Below are positions 50 to 19,476 of a stretch of 40,921 bases of DNA, in pieces. The notes under the pieces were generated by a model. The model was not told where the DNA came from. It saw only the letters and a program-made list of their open reading frames with translations, and did no database searches. Position 1 is the stretch's first letter, and each line of letters opens with the position of its first letter. This DNA comes from a virus. The translations under genes and the position numbers were made by a program. Where the stretch lies: UHGV virus genome UHGV-0093931; one strand, given 5' to 3'.

Positions 50-1363
50 TTAACTTACTGATTTTAATAATCCTCCCGTACTGCTCTCGTGGCTATGGGG
101 CATCAATGGGGCAAAATCTGCCAGCTTCTGATTCAGCATTGCGATCTGCTCTGCGCTGCTGTCAGCCATCCATGCACCGTAAACATTGAACACCATCTGC
201 GCGCTCGCATGCCCCATCTGACTGGCAATAAAACTCGGGTTTGCACCAGCAGATAATGACCAGCACGCATAGGTATGTCGTGACTGGTACGCCTTTCTGT
301 GTCTGATCCCCGCGCGCTTAAGTGCCGCTTCCCATGAGTCGCCTACTGAATCGACCCGGTAGATAAATCCGACCTGCTTACTGCGTCTGACCACATGCGG
401 GTTAAAGACAAATGTACACTCATGGTTCACCGAACGGCCGTACTCACGTAACTGAACTTCAATGTGATGTTTCCTGCCCAGCCTTGTCATCTCAGCCTGA
501 TTTTTCAGGATGCTGATTGCGGGCTGGATAAGATGCACCACTCGATCTGTGCTTGCCTCGGTTTTCGGTAGAGTGAACTCACCAAGTTTCGTATAATTAC
601 GCCTGACGGTAATTGTTCCCGCCTTCAGGTCGATATCTTCCCAGGCCAGGGAGACCAGTTCCCCGTGACGCATTCCTGTGTACACTGCTAATGACCACAG
701 GTTTTTCGTCTGCTGATGCCGGCATGCATCTATCAGGCGAATAAATTCATCACGAGACAGAGGATCTGGTTCTGCCCTGGCTTTTTTCAGAGGCTTAATT
801 CCCTCGAATGGGTTCACCTCTAAATAACCGTGATCTGCAGCAAACTGAAACATTCCGGCCATTGTCGTCATGTAATAGTTCACAGTAACAACGCTTCGCC
901 CTTTTGCCGGAGCTTTGTTTTTCGTCGGATTCTGGTAACCAGTTAGCAAATCTTTCCTAAGATACAGCAATTCCTCTTTGGTTACTGCTGACACCAGGCG
1001 ATTACCTCCGATCCTCGGCACCATATTCCTTGCGACAGACTCATAGCGATTGAATGCGTTCGCGCAGATTTCCATCCGTTTCAGATCCAGCCATTTTTCT
1101 TCAAGTTCTTTCACTGTAATGTCTTTTTTACTTACACCAAAAGCCTTGAGGTTAGGGGAGTCAGGAAACTGGGTTGCATAATCAAAGGTTCCTGTGCGGA
1201 TGGCAAAACATACTGATGTCCGCAGTTCCCCAGCTATCTTCCTGTTCTTAGCGGTGTCAGGGACACCGAGACTTTCCCTGACACGCTTACCTTTAAAATT
1301 AAACCAGATGCGTAATGTGCCACCGTGGTTTTCGACGCCTGTTGGATATGTGACTTTATCCAT
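50..1363 (-). CDS. int: tyrosine-type phage integrase
   Basis: 437-aa ORF at the left end of the prophage; C-terminal region has the His/Tyr signature of tyrosine recombinases (...RHTYACW..., ...VYGAWM...); GGAGG RBS about 8 nt upstream of the ATG at 1361-1363. Confidence 0.9.
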   Translation of the reverse strand: MDKVTYPTGVENHGGTLRIWFNFKGKRVRESLGVPDTAKNRKIAGELRTSVCFAIRTGTFDYATQFPDSPNLKAFGVSKKDITVKELEEKWLDLKRMEICANAFNRYESVARNMVPRIGGNRLVSAVTKEELLYLRKDLLTGYQNPTKNKAPAKGRSVVTVNYYMTTMAGMFQFAADHGYLEVNPFEGIKPLKKARAEPDPLSRDEFIRLIDACRHQQTKNLWSLAVYTGMRHGELVSLAWEDIDLKAGTITVRRNYTKLGEFTLPKTEASTDRVVHLIQPAISILKNQAEMTRLGRKHHIEVQLREYGRSVNHECTFVFNPHVVRRSKQVGFIYRVDSVGDSWEAALKRAGIRHRKAYQSRHTYACWSLSAGANPSFIASQMGHASAQMVFNVYGAWMADSSAEQIAMLNQKLADFAPLMPHSHESSTGGLLKSVS

Positions 1364-7381: not shown

Positions 7382-8008
7382 TTAAAGCTCGTACTGAACG
7401 CCTTTGACAACGCCGATGATCAGGCAATTACCGTTAATTGAAATGTTTGGATAGCGTGGATTTAAGGGAACTAAGAACTTTTGAGGCCCATCGATGACAA
7501 GTTTTTTTACAGTAGCCTCGTTTGTCCCATCAAGCCTGGCTACGACTATCTTTCCATGAAGTGGCTCTGCATCTGGATCTACTATGACTGTTGCCCCTTC
7601 AGGGATTGTCGGGAGGCCATTAGGGTTTGTCATCGAATCACCTTTAACCTCCAATGCAAAGGAGCTATCCCCTATGCGGAGTGATGTCTCTATCCACTTA
7701 TCTACTTCGCTGAAAACTTCTGCTGCTTTACATTCTGTAAACTGTCCAGCCTGAACCCAGGATATCACCGGAATCCTTCGCATCTTGGTTATCAGATTGC
7801 CTTCAAATTCAGTGCCATAAAGTATGTAATCAATTGATGTGTTGAAATACTTTGCAAGTTTCGCAAGTGACTCGCCTCCAGGCACATTAACGTCTTTTTC
7901 CCAATACCCAACCGCCACATCACTAACACCGCAGAACTTACCCAGTTCTTTCTGCGAGGTTTTGGTTATGCGCCTGAGAGCTTTGATGCGCTGACCGACA
8001 GTTTCCAT
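7382..8008 (-). CDS. cI: CI-type repressor (XRE-family HTH with LexA-like S24 peptidase domain)
   Basis: 208 aa; N-terminal HTH (...TSQKELGKFCGVSDVAVGYWE...) and C-terminal autocleavage-type domain; divergent from a cro-like gene. Confidence 0.9.
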   Translation of the reverse strand: METVGQRIKALRRITKTSQKELGKFCGVSDVAVGYWEKDVNVPGGESLAKLAKYFNTSIDYILYGTEFEGNLITKMRRIPVISWVQAGQFTECKAAEVFSEVDKWIETSLRIGDSSFALEVKGDSMTNPNGLPTIPEGATVIVDPDAEPLHGKIVVARLDGTNEATVKKLVIDGPQKFLVPLNPRYPNISINGNCLIIGVVKGVQYEL

Positions 8009-14979: not shown

Positions 14980-15000
14980 GTGTATGGAGCGCAAAGAAGC

Positions 15001-15690
15001 ATGAATCAACAAGACCTGAATTTTGTCAGAATAGAATTGCGCCGCGCGCTACCTGACCTCTCTGGGGGAACAAAAGGGCAGCTTGAGGCTTTCAGTGAAC
15101 ACCCACCAGCAGATAAAAATGCCACCCCGCGCCGTGGAATTCATCTCGTCGAACTCGAAGGAGATAAGGGGCCACGCTTTGTTAACTCGCTTTCCGCGCC
15201 ACTGTATGTGCTGGAAACACGCAGCCGCCGTAGGCCAATGCCGCCGATAAAAGATGCGGAATTTGAGTCAGCGCCGTGGCGTAGGGCAGTGTCCGCGCTT
15301 AGTGGATACCAGCAGGCCTGGTTGCGGTACTGTTACGGTTTTGACCTTAGCTATAAGCACCAGGTGATGATGTGTGAATACGTCTGGAAAACTTATCAGA
15401 AATGCCTGGGTGATAATTCCCTTCAGGAGCGCGTAGTAAAGAAACTGATTGGCCTGGTATGGCTGGCAGGGCAGGAAATTGCCGCAACCAGAAATAATGA
15501 AACCTATAAAGACTATGCTGGTGCAGCGTTGGCCCGCATGGTTAGCGTTGACCGTTCGACATGGTTGCGTGTCTATTCAGGGCACTGGGCTGGGTTAAAG
15601 GCCGCTTTTACCCAGCTTGATGAATCTGCGCTGGCCATGGCTCTTGAATACTATGAGGAAGAAGACGCCCTCAAAGTGGCAGAAATGTGA
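15001..15690 (+). CDS. putative late-gene antiterminator (Q-like)
   Basis: Last gene of the early-right operon, directly upstream of a promoter/terminator module and the lysis cassette; family call by position and memory. Confidence 0.5.
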   Translation: MNQQDLNFVRIELRRALPDLSGGTKGQLEAFSEHPPADKNATPRRGIHLVELEGDKGPRFVNSLSAPLYVLETRSRRRPMPPIKDAEFESAPWRRAVSALSGYQQAWLRYCYGFDLSYKHQVMMCEYVWKTYQKCLGDNSLQERVVKKLIGLVWLAGQEIAATRNNETYKDYAGAALARMVSVDRSTWLRVYSGHWAGLKAAFTQLDESALAMALEYYEEEDALKVAEM

Positions 15691-15782
15691 AGTAAATTTC
15701 ACTATCTCCTTCAAACGCGCTTGCAAAATGCAACAAAATAAGCCATATTTGAAGCATATTTGATATGTTGCCAAAGTTCTAT

Positions 15783-15810
15783 AAACCCGCCTGTGAGCGG
15801 GTTTTTCTTT
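15783..15810 (+). terminator. intrinsic terminator (tR'-like)
   Basis: AAACCCGC-ctgtga-GCGGGTTT stem-loop followed by TTTTCTTT. Confidence 0.7.
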
Positions 15811-15847
15811 AACCTCTTTTGGCACTCAATCTACGTCAAAATCAATA

Positions 15848-15856
15848 TGTTATAAT
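15848..15856 (+). promoter_or_regulatory. extended -10 promoter element (TGtTATAAT)
   Basis: TGn-TATAAT at 15848-15856, about 35 nt upstream of the 15892 ORF; could be the late promoter or a moron promoter. Confidence 0.45.
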
Positions 15857-15891
15857 TCCGCTGGTCAAAACAAGCCACCGGAGGCAGTGCT

Positions 15892-16131
15892 ATGAAAATC
15901 ACATCTGTACATTTCGAAATTCTGCGTCGAGCAGATGCACTTGGTCCACGTGAAACAATTCAATCTTCTGATCTTCCTCACATTCCAGCGAAAACGGTAG
16001 ATTTTGCCATTTCAGATCTTGCTGATTTGGGATTGGTAAATGCTGTTCAAAGTAAGTCTGATGAAGGTGGGTGGATAGCGATTGAAATCACGTCAAAGGG
16101 TGATCGCTATTTAAATGAACTAGAGGCTTAA
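15892..16131 (+). CDS. hypothetical small protein (moron between Q and lysis genes)
   Basis: 79-aa ORF with GGAGG RBS, AT-richer than neighbours, bracketed by its own promoter-like element and terminator. Confidence 0.55.
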   Translation: MKITSVHFEILRRADALGPRETIQSSDLPHIPAKTVDFAISDLADLGLVNAVQSKSDEGGWIAIEITSKGDRYLNELEA

Positions 16132-16166
16132 TTCACTCTCTAGTAAAACGCGGGACATAATCTATA

Positions 16167-16190
16167 GGCTGCCATTTGGCGGCCTTTTCT
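16167..16190 (+). terminator. intrinsic terminator
   Basis: GGCTGCC-attt-GGCGGCC stem (one G-U pair) followed by TTTTCTATTT. Confidence 0.55.
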
Positions 16191-16296
16191 ATTTCAGGCT
16201 CTGGGAATCACCCTTACTTTCACCTTTGCATAAGAGCCCAGAAGCCTGATCCTCCTTTCATCACACAGCGCCATCCGAACTATCGGAGGTGAGGCT

Positions 16297-16575
16297 ATGA
16301 CCAGAATGAGCACCATTTACAGCAGACTTTCATATGGAACAGGAACCACGCTGACCGGCTGCGGTGTATCAGCGAAGGCATACGCCGAAACAGCTAAAAC
16401 AGCAAAAGAGGTGTCCTGGATGTTGGCCGACAGAATTGCAGGGTTAAGCCTGAGCGACTGGGCAATTATTGTCGGTATCGCATGCACCGTTATTACCTGT
16501 GCAGTGAACTGGTATTTCCGCTGGAAAGAACGGGAGGATCGTCGCAATGGCTATGCCACAAAAGCTGAAGAATAA
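16297..16575 (+). CDS. holin, pinholin-like (phage 21 S-like) with dual-start motif
   Basis: 92 aa; begins MTRM (two Met codons separated by a basic residue); weakly hydrophobic first segment, clear TMD (WAIIVGIACTVITCAVNWYF) and charged tail (...REDRR...) resembling the S21 pinholin; sits immediately before a SAR endolysin. Confidence 0.7.
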   Translation: MTRMSTIYSRLSYGTGTTLTGCGVSAKAYAETAKTAKEVSWMLADRIAGLSLSDWAIIVGIACTVITCAVNWYFRWKEREDRRNGYATKAEE

Positions 16576-17095
16576 ACTGAGCGCAGCTGTCGTTGGGTTA
16601 ATTCTTGCCGGGGCTTCCGCACCCGTAATTCTCGATCAGTTTCTGGATGAGAAAGAGGGTAACAGCACAACAGCGTACAAGGACGGCTCTGGTATATGGA
16701 CCATTTGTCGTGGCGCAACGATGGTTGATGGTAAGCCAGTAGTTCAGGGCATGAAGCTGCCTGCTGAGAAATGCGCTCAGGTAAATGCTATTGAACGCGA
16801 TAAAGCGCTGGCGTGGGTTGACCGAAATATCAAAGTACCACTGACGGAACCACAGAAAGCGGGTATCGCTTCTTTCTGCCCATATAACATCGGCCCCGGA
16901 AAATGTTTCCCGTCTACGTTCTATAAGCGAATTAATGCTGGCGACCGTAAAGGAGCCTGTGAAGCGATCCGCTGGTGGATAAAAGACGGTGGCCGCGATT
17001 GTCGCCTGACCAAAGGGCAGAAGAATGGTTGTTATGGGCAGGTAGAAAGGCGAGACCAGGAAAGCGCGCTGGCTTGCTGGGGGATAGACCAGTGA
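16547..17095 (+). CDS. SAR endolysin (lysozyme, T4/P1-lysozyme-like)
   Basis: N-terminal signal-anchor-release-like segment (...LSAAVVGLILAGASAPVIL...) followed by a catalytic E...D...T region (EGNSTTAYKDGSGIWTICRG). Confidence 0.85.
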   Translation: MAMPQKLKNKLSAAVVGLILAGASAPVILDQFLDEKEGNSTTAYKDGSGIWTICRGATMVDGKPVVQGMKLPAEKCAQVNAIERDKALAWVDRNIKVPLTEPQKAGIASFCPYNIGPGKCFPSTFYKRINAGDRKGACEAIRWWIKDGGRDCRLTKGQKNGCYGQVERRDQESALACWGIDQ

Positions 17096-17616
17096 ACAGA
17101 AGCCTCGTTATTGTTGGGATGGCAGCAATCATCTTCATCGCGGTGCTCTGTGTACTACTGGCGCGCAGCAATGCAGCGTTGACCACGTCAGAGAGTGACA
17201 ACCGGATACTGCGCAACGATAACGCACTGCAGGCAACGGTGATAACTACCCAGGCGTTCAACTTCAACCGGTTTAACCAGGTAGCGGAGAACGCCAGTCG
17301 CCTGAACTCGCTGATTGATGCCGGAACCGAAAAGACCGTTATCGAATACCGGGAGATTCTTCGCCGTGAAAAAACCTGTGATCTGCCTGTTCCTGCTAAT
17401 GTCGCTGGTGGGCTGCTCAACTACGCGAACCGTTTACGTGCCAGCGCAATGCACCCCGATACCGGGGACACTGACGCAGCCGATGATAGTACCGCTGCCG
17501 CCAGCTCAATAACCTATTGTCAGGCCGTTCTCTGGATTCAATCATTACTTGCAGAGATAGAGAAGGGTAACAACCAACTGGCAGGGATTAGGGATATTGA
17601 GGAAGGGAGACATTAG
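17092..17616 (+). CDS. Rz-like i-spanin
   Basis: GTG at 17092 overlaps the endolysin stop; N-terminal TMD (SLVIVGMAAIIFIAVLCVLLA) then a long periplasmic region; contains an embedded +1-frame lipoprotein ORF. Confidence 0.7.
   Translation: MNRSLVIVGMAAIIFIAVLCVLLARSNAALTTSESDNRILRNDNALQATVITTQAFNFNRFNQVAENASRLNSLIDAGTEKTVIEYREILRREKTCDLPVPANVAGGLLNYANRLRASAMHPDTGDTDAADDSTAAASSITYCQAVLWIQSLLAEIEKGNNQLAGIRDIEEGRH
17366..17512 (+). CDS. Rz1-like o-spanin (lipoprotein embedded in Rz)
   Basis: GTG at 17366 with GGAG about 10 nt upstream; signal peptide plus lipobox (...LLMSLVGC...) and proline-rich mature part (PIPGTLTQPMIVPLPPAQ), entirely inside Rz in another frame. Confidence 0.6.
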   Translation: MKKPVICLFLLMSLVGCSTTRTVYVPAQCTPIPGTLTQPMIVPLPPAQ

Positions 17617-17652: not shown

Positions 17653-17910
17653 TTAAGATTTAGAAAGTAGGGCTACAACTCTTTTATGTAACTCTTCTGC
17701 ATAACCTTCATTTACTGGGTTTTCAAACTCCACAGGCGGCGCTGATTTAAAAGCTTTATCGTAGCTATCGCCAAGCATACCAGGCTGTTTGGCAAGGGAG
17801 TTCCAAGCTGTGGATATCGTGGTAATAGCAATTCTTGCTGCATGCTGATCTAAAAGTAGCTCTTCAATAGTTTTTTCGAGTTCATCAATGCGTTTCTGCA
17901 GATCTGTCAT
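17653..17910 (-). CDS. hypothetical small protein, divergent from the glycosyltransferase cluster
   Basis: 85-aa ORF on the opposite strand to all flanking late genes, in an AT-rich island (about 17620-18020). Confidence 0.45.
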   Translation of the reverse strand: MTDLQKRIDELEKTIEELLLDQHAARIAITTISTAWNSLAKQPGMLGDSYDKAFKSAPPVEFENPVNEGYAEELHKRVVALLSKS

Positions 17911-18018
17911 GAAATTACCTCTAAAGGGTTGTGTAAATGAGCTGCGATTATATCATTTTGGTGTCAGCAAAAGTGATGTCCAGATAGGAGTCCTGAACCA
18001 TTTTATTTTGGAGAAATT

Positions 18019-19476
18019 ATGCAGGTCACTATCGATGGTGTTCCATACGCGCCTGTCTGCAATTCGGTGTCACGCATAGGAATAGCAATCACAACGCATA
18101 ATCGCCCTGACGTATTGAAGCGGACACTGGCGCAGCATCATCAATTTTTACCGTCCGGCGCGCTCGTGGTTGTCATAGATGATGGTTCAAAACCTGCCGC
18201 AGTCGTTCCCGACGGCGTGCAGCTGCTTCGCAATGAAACATCCCTCGGCATTGTGGCCTCGAAAAACCGAAGCCTCGAAGCGCTGGTGGACGCCGGATGT
18301 GAGCATCTCTTCCTGTGGGATGATGACGCATGGCCGGTTGCCGATAACTGGCACCTGCCTTACATCGAATCACCTGAGTCACACCTGGCTTACCAGTTTC
18401 TCGATCTGGCTGGTCCACGAAAGATAAACGATATGACCGTCCTGCACCAGGATGATAAGCATATCGCTTACACCGGGCAGCGCGGTGTGATGCTGTACTA
18501 CCACCGCAGCGCCATTGAGAAGGTTGGCGGATTCGATCCGGTATACGGTCGAGGCATGTATGAGCATCCTGATTTGGCGCTTCGGATTTATAACGCTGGC
18601 TTAACGTCCTGGGCGTTTGCTGATGTGGTTGGCTCTGAAAAGCTGATTCACTCAATGGATGAATACGAAGAGGGCGCGCGCAGCATACCGAGGCCTGAAC
18701 GTGAAGCGCTCTATAAAAAGAACGCTGTAATTTACGGGCAGCGCCGGGATTCAGGATATACAGGCTATGCCGAATATCGATCTCAGCGCGACGTGGTAAT
18801 CACAACGTTGCTTACCAGCCAGCCAGACCCGCAGCGCGGTACGAAAATGGCGGCCGTATCAGACATGCTGACCAGGTGGGCTGCCTCGCTTCGGAATTGT
18901 GGCCGTATTGCGCTGGTGGATGAGCTGCAGACGGCATCGGCAGACGTTGAGTTGTATCGCGTCCCTGACGTGAAGATGAATGTCTACTTCCGGCGCTGGC
19001 TGCATATCTGGCAGCACCTGCGCGATCACCCTGAATACCGGTTCGTCTGGTGTACCGATGGTACCGATGTCGAAATGCTCCGCGCACCGTGGGAAGAAAT
19101 GCAGCCCGGGAATGTTTACGTCGGTTCTGAACCGAAGATCTACGCCGACACCTGGGCGAAACAGAATCATCCTGAGCGTATCTATCAGGAATTCATTGAA
19201 GCGCACCGCGGCGATGTGATGCTTAATGCTGGTCTTCTGGGAGGCACCCGCGCTGATGTGATGGCGTTCGCTCATGGCATCATCCGTCTTTACTACCGGA
19301 TCGAGAGTTATCGTTTCTGGAAGAAAGAACAGGCTGGCGCAGCGGTGGGTGACATGCTGGCGTTCGGTATCGTTGCGCAGTCATTCGCTGACAGGTTGGT
19401 CACCGGCCCTCTGGTACATACCGTTTTCAAAACTGATGGTATCGGTAAGGAGGCAGCATGGTGGAAACACAAGTGA
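18019..19476 (+). CDS. two-domain glycosyltransferase (GT2-like GT-A domain plus a second nucleotide-sugar-transferase-like domain)
   Basis: 485 aa; N-terminus ...IGIAITTHNRPDVLKRTL...VVVIDDGS...LFLWDDDAW... is a GT-A/GT2 signature with DxD; C-terminal half has ...VWCTDGTDVEM...NAGLLGG... resembling another GT-A-type domain; no predicted TM segments. Confidence 0.7.
   Translation: MQVTIDGVPYAPVCNSVSRIGIAITTHNRPDVLKRTLAQHHQFLPSGALVVVIDDGSKPAAVVPDGVQLLRNETSLGIVASKNRSLEALVDAGCEHLFLWDDDAWPVADNWHLPYIESPESHLAYQFLDLAGPRKINDMTVLHQDDKHIAYTGQRGVMLYYHRSAIEKVGGFDPVYGRGMYEHPDLALRIYNAGLTSWAFADVVGSEKLIHSMDEYEEGARSIPRPEREALYKKNAVIYGQRRDSGYTGYAEYRSQRDVVITTLLTSQPDPQRGTKMAAVSDMLTRWAASLRNCGRIALVDELQTASADVELYRVPDVKMNVYFRRWLHIWQHLRDHPEYRFVWCTDGTDVEMLRAPWEEMQPGNVYVGSEPKIYADTWAKQNHPERIYQEFIEAHRGDVMLNAGLLGGTRADVMAFAHGIIRLYYRIESYRFWKKEQAGAAVGDMLAFGIVAQSFADRLVTGPLVHTVFKTDGIGKEAAWWKHK

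Follow-up and report, generated by a model that had tools for sequence, protein, structure and literature searches.

In lambdoid phages, the late promoter pR' is constitutive and its transcripts are stopped at the terminator tR' in lysogens, and the stx1 genes of Stx phages have, in addition, a promoter of their own 3' of tR' (PMC7547250). The order of elements in the stx1 locus is pR', tR', Pstx1, stx1AB, terminator, and lysis genes; the cargo lies 5' of the lysis genes and is also read through by Q-modified polymerase (PMC7547250). Morons are defined as added DNA with its own promoter and terminator and a deviating GC content (PMC3594210). Gene 15 of HK97 (Juhala/Hendrix; PMC3594210) is such a moron; it is located in the tail operon, and gp15 is a membrane superinfection-exclusion protein. 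For the late promoter itself, the closest described system is phage 82, in which pR' has an extended -10-like pause element with a GCC discriminator at +15 to +17 and a pause at +25/+26, with a terminal U (PMC5001585). The family PF06323 is the Q82 family of antiterminators (PMC9388147).

The DNA analyzed here (the window, 40,921 nucleotides at its full length) is a complete lambdoid genome, temperate by its integrase (positions 50 to 1363, minus strand) and S24 CI-like repressor (7382 to 8008, minus strand), and the phage probably comes from Citrobacter. The window also encodes a CII-like gene, a C5 methylase, Ant, DUF968, Q, a lysis cassette, terminase, and capsid genes. We read the region 3' of the Q gene as a late switch followed by a moron, i.e., as two back-to-back transcription units, and estimate the probability of this reading at about 70%. 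The first unit would comprise a constitutive pR', a sigma70-dependent pause near +25 for Q loading, and tR' ~55 nt from the start. The second would comprise an extended -10 promoter lacking a -35 element, the gene for a 79-residue acidic winged-helix protein (ORF79), and an intrinsic terminator before the holin gene.

This second unit (the cassette) has the same slot and the same wiring as the stx1 locus, and read-through by Q-modified polymerase would be expected here as well. However, the cargo is a 79-aa winged-helix protein and no toxin, Q belongs to the Q82 family, the distance from pR' to tR' is ~55 nt and not 258 nt as in the stx1 locus, and the cassette promoter showed neither a Fur box nor a site for any other known regulator. 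Like the HK97 moron, the cassette is extra DNA with a deviating GC content, a terminator, and a predicted promoter of its own, and its expression from the repressed prophage is presumed. Whereas gene 15 belongs to the tail operon and encodes a membrane protein, the cassette is located after tR', its product is predicted to be a soluble acidic winged helix, and the ORF79 family keeps to one slot with unusual fidelity.

Predicted late promoter, pause element, and tR' downstream of the Q gene

The Q gene (14980 to 15690, plus strand) encodes a 236-aa antiterminator of the Q82 family, which matches PF06323 (Phage_antiter_Q; E = 2.4e-36, 126 bits against a cut-off of 25) and phrog_304 (E = 7e-72) and is 31% identical to the Q protein of phage 82. 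The late promoter pR' (15721 to 15749, plus strand) consists of the -35 element TTGCAA (15721 to 15726), a 17-nt spacer, and the -10 element CATATT (15744 to 15749); the inferred +1 is at 15756, and the predicted transcript starts with AUAUUUGAUAUGUUGCCAAAGUUCU. This block is nearly invariant 3' of Q in six phages (Flotzy, phiNP, the Nissle prophage, Escherichia coli 1943, and loci L006 and L008), and it can be aligned with TTGCAA-17-TATATT of PhiR47_2 and also with phage 434. The phage 82 record (X92588) stops at the Q stop codon, and PhiR47_2 and 434, the Q proteins of which are 97% and 89% identical to Q82, respectively, stand in for it in the comparison.

A sigma70-dependent pause element is predicted at 15761 to 15781 (plus strand), with TG-n-TATGTT-GCC at 15761 to 15772 and a pause near 15780. 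Counted from 15756, TG is located at +6/+7, the -10-like TATGTT at +9 to +14, and GCC at +15 to +17, followed by an AT-rich stretch and a U at +25 (~15780). This register equals that published for the phage 82 pR' position for position (PMC5001585), and PhiR47_2 has the same register (TTGCAA-17-TATATT-6-AAATCTGATATTTTGCCAATGTTGT). The pause elements are invariant or nearly so in the alignment designated A6, and a full-text literature search with the pause-element sequence retrieved unrelated primers only. The window thereby shares with the late region of phages 82 and 434 a PF06323 Q, TTGCAA-17-(C/T)ATATT, TG at +6/+7, the -10-like sequence at +9 to +14, GCC at +15 to +17, and U at +25. However, the -35 element overlaps the end of Q in those phages, whereas it lies 31 nt after the Q stop codon in the window, and the Q protein of the window is only 31% identical to Q82; the correspondence holds at the level of sequence.

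The short pR' transcript is predicted to end at an intrinsic terminator (15783 to 15810, plus strand) that the sequence-only reading had already described as tR'-like. The terminator scan returned an 8-bp hairpin with five GC pairs at 15783 to 15804, followed by TTTTTCTTT; the hairpin begins at +28 of the transcript and folds with -12 kcal/mol (z = -3.8), and none of 200 shuffles was as good. Phages 434, Flotzy, and phiNP have a homologous hairpin after pR', and the one shared with 434 is AAACCCGC...GGGTTTTTT, also given as AAACCCGC...GGGTTTTTTTT. Based on the register match to phages 82, PhiR47_2, and 434, we assign 15721 to 15810 to pR', a predicted sigma-dependent pause element, and tR'.

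Two explanations of the ORF had been offered from the sequence, an autonomous moron and a late-promoter/qut region that carries a gene, and the ORF had been placed in the space of the pR'-tR' leader. The latter explanation finds no support and the placement is off, since pR' and the pause element are located at 15721 to 15781, 5' of the first terminator, and the leader is a separate unit of ~55 nt (15756 to 15810) with the ORF downstream of tR'. Under that explanation, TGTTATAAT upstream of the ORF would be part of the late promoter or qut and the hairpin after the ORF would be tR'. An extended -10 near Q together with a terminator before the lysis genes does superficially resemble the arrangement of pR' and tR', and the pause element of phage 82 also has an extended -10 (PMC5001585). 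However, the complete Q82-type set of pR', pause element, and terminator at 15721 to 15810 co-varies with Q and matches 82 and 434, and the block with ORF79 is missing where other phages share this Q and is found unchanged behind lambda-type Q genes that have a lambda-like pR' and a AACGATGGG pause element of their own, all of which makes such an assignment very improbable.

The predicted pR'-tR' RNA (15756 to 15810, ~53 to 55 nt) has an AU-rich 5' part, a GC hairpin, and a U-run, a shape that resembles Hfq-dependent sRNAs. In Stx phages, the pR'-tR' RNA is the regulatory sRNA StxS (PMC7547250), and as a side possibility, by analogy, the constitutive RNA of ~53 nt predicted here might be an StxS-like regulatory sRNA. 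An Rfam search of 15400 to 16600 (E <= 1) gave sub-threshold chance matches only, among them Trp_leader on the pR'-tR' segment (25 bits against 41). In addition, an inverted repeat, GTGAA-N6-TTCAC (15687 to 15702), overlaps the Q stop codon ~20 nt 5' of the pR' -35 element. All five phages in the alignment designated A1 have this repeat, with a change of the inner base of the left arm in phiNP, and it could be a protein-binding site, e.g., a Q-binding element.

Predicted promoter block and distribution of the ORF79 cassette

ORF79 (15892 to 16131, plus strand) starts with an ATG codon 7 nt downstream of the Shine-Dalgarno sequence GGAGG (15880 to 15884). The GC content across 15700 to 16200 is 0.40 to 0.43, compared to 0.50 to 0.58 in both flanks. 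The predicted cassette promoter is the block TCAATCTACGTCAAAATCAATA-TGTTATAAT (15826 to 15856, plus strand), in which TGTTATAAT (15848 to 15856) is a perfect extended -10 located 35 nt 5' of the ATG, with an inferred start near 15863. No -35 match was found at a 16- to 18-nt spacing 5' of TGTTATAAT, and the promoter would therefore be of the pure extended -10 type; because of the absent -35 element, it was not called by a simple sigma70 scan. The motif TGNTATAAT occurs twice in the 40.9-kb window (0.66 expected; 12% of shuffles reach 2). By itself, without comparison, this occurrence is not significant, and the case therefore rests on the comparison with other phages.

In groups A, B, and C of the related loci, the ORF is preceded by a 31-nt block, TCAATCTAC(G/A)TCAAAATCAAT(A/G)TGTTA(T/C)AAT, with 29 to 31 of 31 positions identical (94 to 100%), while the coding sequences of the diverged copies L006, L013, and L020 are only 65 to 83% identical to that of the window. 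With dS values of up to 1.36 against group C, synonymous sites have diverged while the block has been kept, and between the three groups the 5' untranslated region and the DNA upstream of the block show background similarity only. The more distant subfamilies (33 to 44% identity; Kosakonia, a metagenome lineage, and Klebsiella phages) have a different upstream block but keep TGATAAAAT, TGATACAAT, or TGGTAAAAT 38 to 42 nt before the ATG and have a terminator after the gene. Taken over all six lineages (~30 related loci), TGnTAnAAT is located 38 to 46 nt before the ATG, even where the surrounding DNA cannot be aligned. This conservation raises the predicted promoter-ORF-terminator layout above chance. 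The extended -10, the 79-aa AT-rich ORF, and the second terminator noticed from the sequence are all found at the coordinates given, the extended -10 being conserved in six lineages, and the ORF, the lack of conservation of which had been named as one of two points that would count against the proposal, has relatives in ~30 loci. Promoter activity and terminator activity are predictions made from sequence.

The block occurs once in the window, and in 2.9 million viral contigs it was found only beside relatives of ORF79 (22 of 22). A 21-nt block searched against genome contigs gave one match, in a deltaproteobacterial metagenome-assembled genome with no ORF79 after it, and ~0.5 matches are expected by chance. 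A multi-copy operator or reusable promoter module was rejected on account of the single copy in the window and the restriction to ORF79 relatives. By eye, the block did not fit sigma54 (TGGCAC at 15820), LexA, CRP, or Fur-box readings. The block also contains AATCAATATGTTA, which matches an IHF-like core consensus; such matches are expected by chance, and we make no claim from it. The strong constraint on the -37 to -17 part of the promoter is mildly unusual.

A blastn comparison with phage genomes divided the region into three parts: 15670 to 15809, conserved 3' of like Q genes; a middle part with no match in phage DNA; and 16167 to 16300, conserved upstream of the holin genes in HK225, mEp237, and Gifsy-2. 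In a post-Q alignment of the window with Flotzy, phiNP, the Nissle prophage, and E. coli 1943, the DNA is nearly invariant from the Q stop codon to the T-run of tR'. After this T-run, the DNA of Flotzy, phiNP, and the Nissle prophage abruptly ceases to resemble that of the window. The cassette is absent there, and tR' is followed by a small ORF and a DNA methyltransferase gene in Flotzy and phiNP and by protease and methyltransferase genes in the Nissle prophage. In PhiR47_2, the tR' region leads to the holin gene with no cassette.

Relatives of ORF79 formed 32 clusters at 90% identity (14 at first) among 5.8 billion proteins and six 50% representatives among 1.84 billion proteins. All of them are from Enterobacteriaceae, mostly Citrobacter, with a common 89-aa version in E. 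coli that is present in 41 of 5,426 complete genomes of that species. The closest named homologues are from Citrobacter portucalensis and Citrobacter freundii, and all relatives are named "hypothetical protein" in the databases. A protein-profile scan of genome contigs detected no relative, and species-representative genomes evidently do not carry this prophage gene. One metagenome viral contig (L009; IMGVR_UViG_3300029782_000366; 40,124 bp) encodes DUF968, Q, ORF79, holin, and lysozyme proteins 100% identical to those of the window and is probably the same phage.

In the ~30 contexts inspected, the gene was always located directly after the promoter and terminator of the antiterminator and before the lysis genes, and relatives down to 33% identity keep the slot right after tR'. 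The antiterminators belong to three families, namely, Q82 type (PF06323), Qlambda type (PF03589), and a DUF1133-annotated type in Klebsiella phages; in the Qlambda-type contexts, a lambda-like pR' with its own AACGATGGG pause element precedes the same cassette. The lysis cassettes downstream also vary (P21/HP1-type holin with lysozyme, lambda-type holin with GH19, holin_8 and holin_3_7 with GH19, and others). These contexts show, by sequence comparison, that the cassette moves as a unit between antiterminator families and lysis cassettes. Its fidelity to the slot after tR' across three antiterminator families is mildly unusual. The absence of the cassette from phages with the same Q, its own -10 and terminator, its GC content, and its movement between contexts support, at the sequence and comparative level, the proposal of an autonomous moron, which is the part of the sequence-only reading that stands.

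The main rival to the moron reading treats ORF79 as an ordinary gene at the head of the late operon, expressed from pR' only, by Q-dependent antitermination, and TGTTATAAT not as a working promoter but as a possible recombination linker or sigma-dependent pause site. The locking of the family to the post-tR' slot in every context, down to 33% identity, speaks for this, and such a gene could indeed be a regular first late gene instead of free cargo; there is no -35 element, and the mosaic break points fall at the promoter block, as would fit a linker. However, a linker would not need TGnTAnAAT, and six lineages keep the exact extended -10 at a constant spacing to the ATG, including two in which the upstream blocks are unrelated. 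Low GC content and presence or absence among phages with the same Q are, moreover, typical of cargo. We consider this rival unlikely, also with respect to the second hairpin, which it takes to be the second of two tandem late terminators and part of the holin leader (see below).

The winged-helix protein encoded by ORF79

The only family match of ORF79 is PHROG 32916 (phrog_32916, function unknown), with E = 9.7e-27 and residues 1 to 78 aligned to positions 1 to 79 of the 89-position profile. The AlphaFold model is confident (pLDDT, 92.1; pTM, 0.82) and has the modelled topology H1-b-H2-H3-b2-wing-b3-H4, i.e., that of a winged helix. The dN/dS ratios within the family are 0.14 to 0.55, with saturated dS, showing that the protein is under purifying selection, and the start codon and Shine-Dalgarno sequence are conserved. 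It could be objected that the region is a non-coding spacer or an RNA and ORF79 no real gene, given its length of 79 aa, the lack of a Pfam match above threshold, and the uniform "hypothetical protein" names. This view is already disfavoured, and we regard it as scarcely credible in light of the full-length PHROG match, the dN/dS ratios, the conserved start signals, the winged-helix model, and the finding of no Rfam family at threshold.

No Pfam family scored above threshold; ORF79 is weakly similar to DUF2513 (PF10711), with 17.7 bits where the gathering score is 29.6. At 21.8 bits, the 89-aa relative from E. coli also stayed below this cut-off. A distant relationship to DUF2513 is nevertheless likely, as several relatives carry a precomputed PF10711 label. 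An NCBIfam search returned nothing, and a sequence search of the PDB gave nothing below E = 0.07 other than the best match, a MarR protein at E = 0.069. A Foldseek search of BFVD with the model returned generic winged-helix matches only (E > 1e-3). PADLOC gave no meaningful defence-system match for ORF79, its E. coli relative, or the 268-aa group C neighbour.

The core H1-b1-H2-H3-b2-wing-b3-H4 is shared with MarR-type and stand-alone winged helices (PDB 3bpx, MarR; 2obp; 3b73, PhiH1 repressor-like; and 2hgc, YjcQ). However, membership in the MarR family (PF01047) was rejected, since no HMM hit was obtained at E <= 0.01 and ORF79, with 79 aa compared to ~140 to 150 aa in that family, lacks the N- and C-terminal dimerisation helices. 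ORF79 further differs from MarR in being acidic, both overall and on helix 3.

In winged-helix proteins that read DNA, the classical recognition helix is basic. The window protein has a pI of 4.8 and a net charge of -5, and the family is acidic to neutral (pI 4.5 to 6.9); the exposed positions of helix 3, the putative recognition helix, are D37, S41, D42, and D45, and they are acidic or polar also in remote members. The acidity, mildly unusual for a winged helix, and the helix 3 residues argue against classical DNA binding. We propose that ORF79 functions in the lysogen as a small regulatory or binding factor, with a putative target that is perhaps DNA, possibly the -37 to -17 block of its own promoter, or another protein.

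Another view of the family, which we hold to be doubtful, is that it is no random cargo but a dedicated, position-locked accessory of the late switch of enterobacterial lambdoid phages, one that is expressed in lysogens under the control of the -37 to -17 block of its own promoter and acts on late transcription or on rival phages. Such an accessory might, for example, bind RNA polymerase, sigma, Q, or DNA near late promoters, and ORF79 would then keep the lysis genes silent or exclude superinfecting phages.

Second terminator, lysis genes, and proposed transcription of the locus

The second intrinsic terminator is predicted at 16166 to 16190 (plus strand) and consists, according to the terminator scan, of a hairpin (16166 to 16185) and the T-run TTTTCTATTT. 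The hairpin folds with -14.9 kcal/mol (z = -4.6), and none of 200 shuffles was as good. Its 7-bp core, GGCTGCC/GG(C/T)(G/A)GCC, is kept in every variant while the loops vary freely, and the core changes only from G-C to G-U and from U-G to U-A, with pairing kept. This variation fits an RNA hairpin on the plus strand. A count of pairs revealed no double compensatory change among the GGCTGCC variants; a Klebsiella phage has a hairpin of different sequence at the equivalent place, with four double-sided compensatory pairs, and compensation appears only when this hairpin is included. A hairpin follows the ORF in all six lineages, with a T-run in all but one.

In HK225, the same hairpin and the leader that follows it precede the holin gene, and ORF79 is absent. 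In locus L039, the ORF has a terminator of its own, followed by the holin-leader hairpin, and the terminator in L036 is likewise separate. Because of HK225 and L039, the second hairpin is not exclusively the terminator of the cassette. We read it as the 5' end of a conserved holin-leader module that doubles as the cassette terminator at a mosaic junction; judging from its sequence, it would end the cassette transcript and shield the lysis genes. That the hairpin and leader precede holin genes where there is no ORF is what the first-late-gene rival would expect, but the gene terminators of L039 and L036, separate from the holin-leader hairpin, are contrary to it. Returning to the moron reading, the cassette is extra DNA with a deviating GC content and has its own terminator, although one shared with the holin-leader module, and it can be regarded as an ordinary and well-supported moron in a known cargo hotspot.

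In the E. coli prophages of group C, the hairpin after the ORF has no T-run and a second cargo gene comes next, encoding a protein of 264 to 268 aa after the 89-aa relative (4468 to 5274 in L020 and 5480 to 6274 in L041). This protein has a hydrophobic C-terminal half, is likely a membrane protein, and has no Pfam or PADLOC match. The two genes may form a two-gene cargo unit.

From the second terminator to the holin ATG, the leader (16186 to 16296) is conserved before different holin types and was found in HK225, E. coli 1943, L010, and Klebsiella phage ST405-OXA48phi1.2. RNAalifold predicted that TCAGGCT and AGCCTGA form a long-range helix and that the holin Shine-Dalgarno sequence (GGAGG) is sequestered in a stem; all paired positions are invariant, and there is thus no covariation support. 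The lysis cassette (16297 to 17616) comprises, all on the plus strand, the genes for the holin (16297 to 16575; Pfam Phage_holin_2_3/2_1), a SAR-type lysozyme (16547 to 17095; Pfam Phage_lysozyme), Rz (16975 to 17616; phrog_214, Rz-like spanin), and Rz1, which is embedded in Rz (17315 to 17512). The holin starts with MTRM..., a dual-start motif like those of lambda S and S21. We infer that this cassette is the downstream target of Q-dependent read-through.

Right after Rz/Rz1, an AT-rich patch (GC, 0.40 to 0.43) contains an 85-aa ORF on the minus strand (17910 to 17653). The second copy of TGNTATAAT in the window, TGATATAAT (17955 to 17947, minus strand), is located 37 nt upstream of this ORF, and the unit at 17653 to 17955 looks like a second moron in the opposite orientation. 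Between the lysis cassette and the terminase genes, a 485-aa ORF (18019 to 19476) has a sub-threshold match to Glycos_transf_2 (20.3 against 23.3 bits) and may be further cargo, e.g., a surface-modifying enzyme.

By analogy with the described systems, pR' transcripts would end at tR' in the lysogen, while the cassette would be transcribed from its own promoter, from ~15863 to ~16188, insulated on both sides. Its transcript would stop at the second terminator, leaving the lysis genes silent. Upon induction, Q-modified polymerase starting from pR' (15756) would continue past tR' and through both the ORF and the second terminator to reach the lysis and morphogenesis genes, and ORF79 would then also be the first late gene.

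The locus represents a moron with sharp limits in the slot where Stx phages have the Shiga toxin genes, with boundaries that are almost base-resolved, from a few bases after the T-run of tR' to the second terminator. In addition, a Q82-type pR', pause element, and tR' are placed here in a phage with a Q protein only 31% identical to Q82, which is useful for the least understood Q family. The cargo belongs to an uncharacterised, narrowly distributed protein family; should it be active in lysogens, it would constitute a new small regulator or exclusion factor encoded by a prophage.
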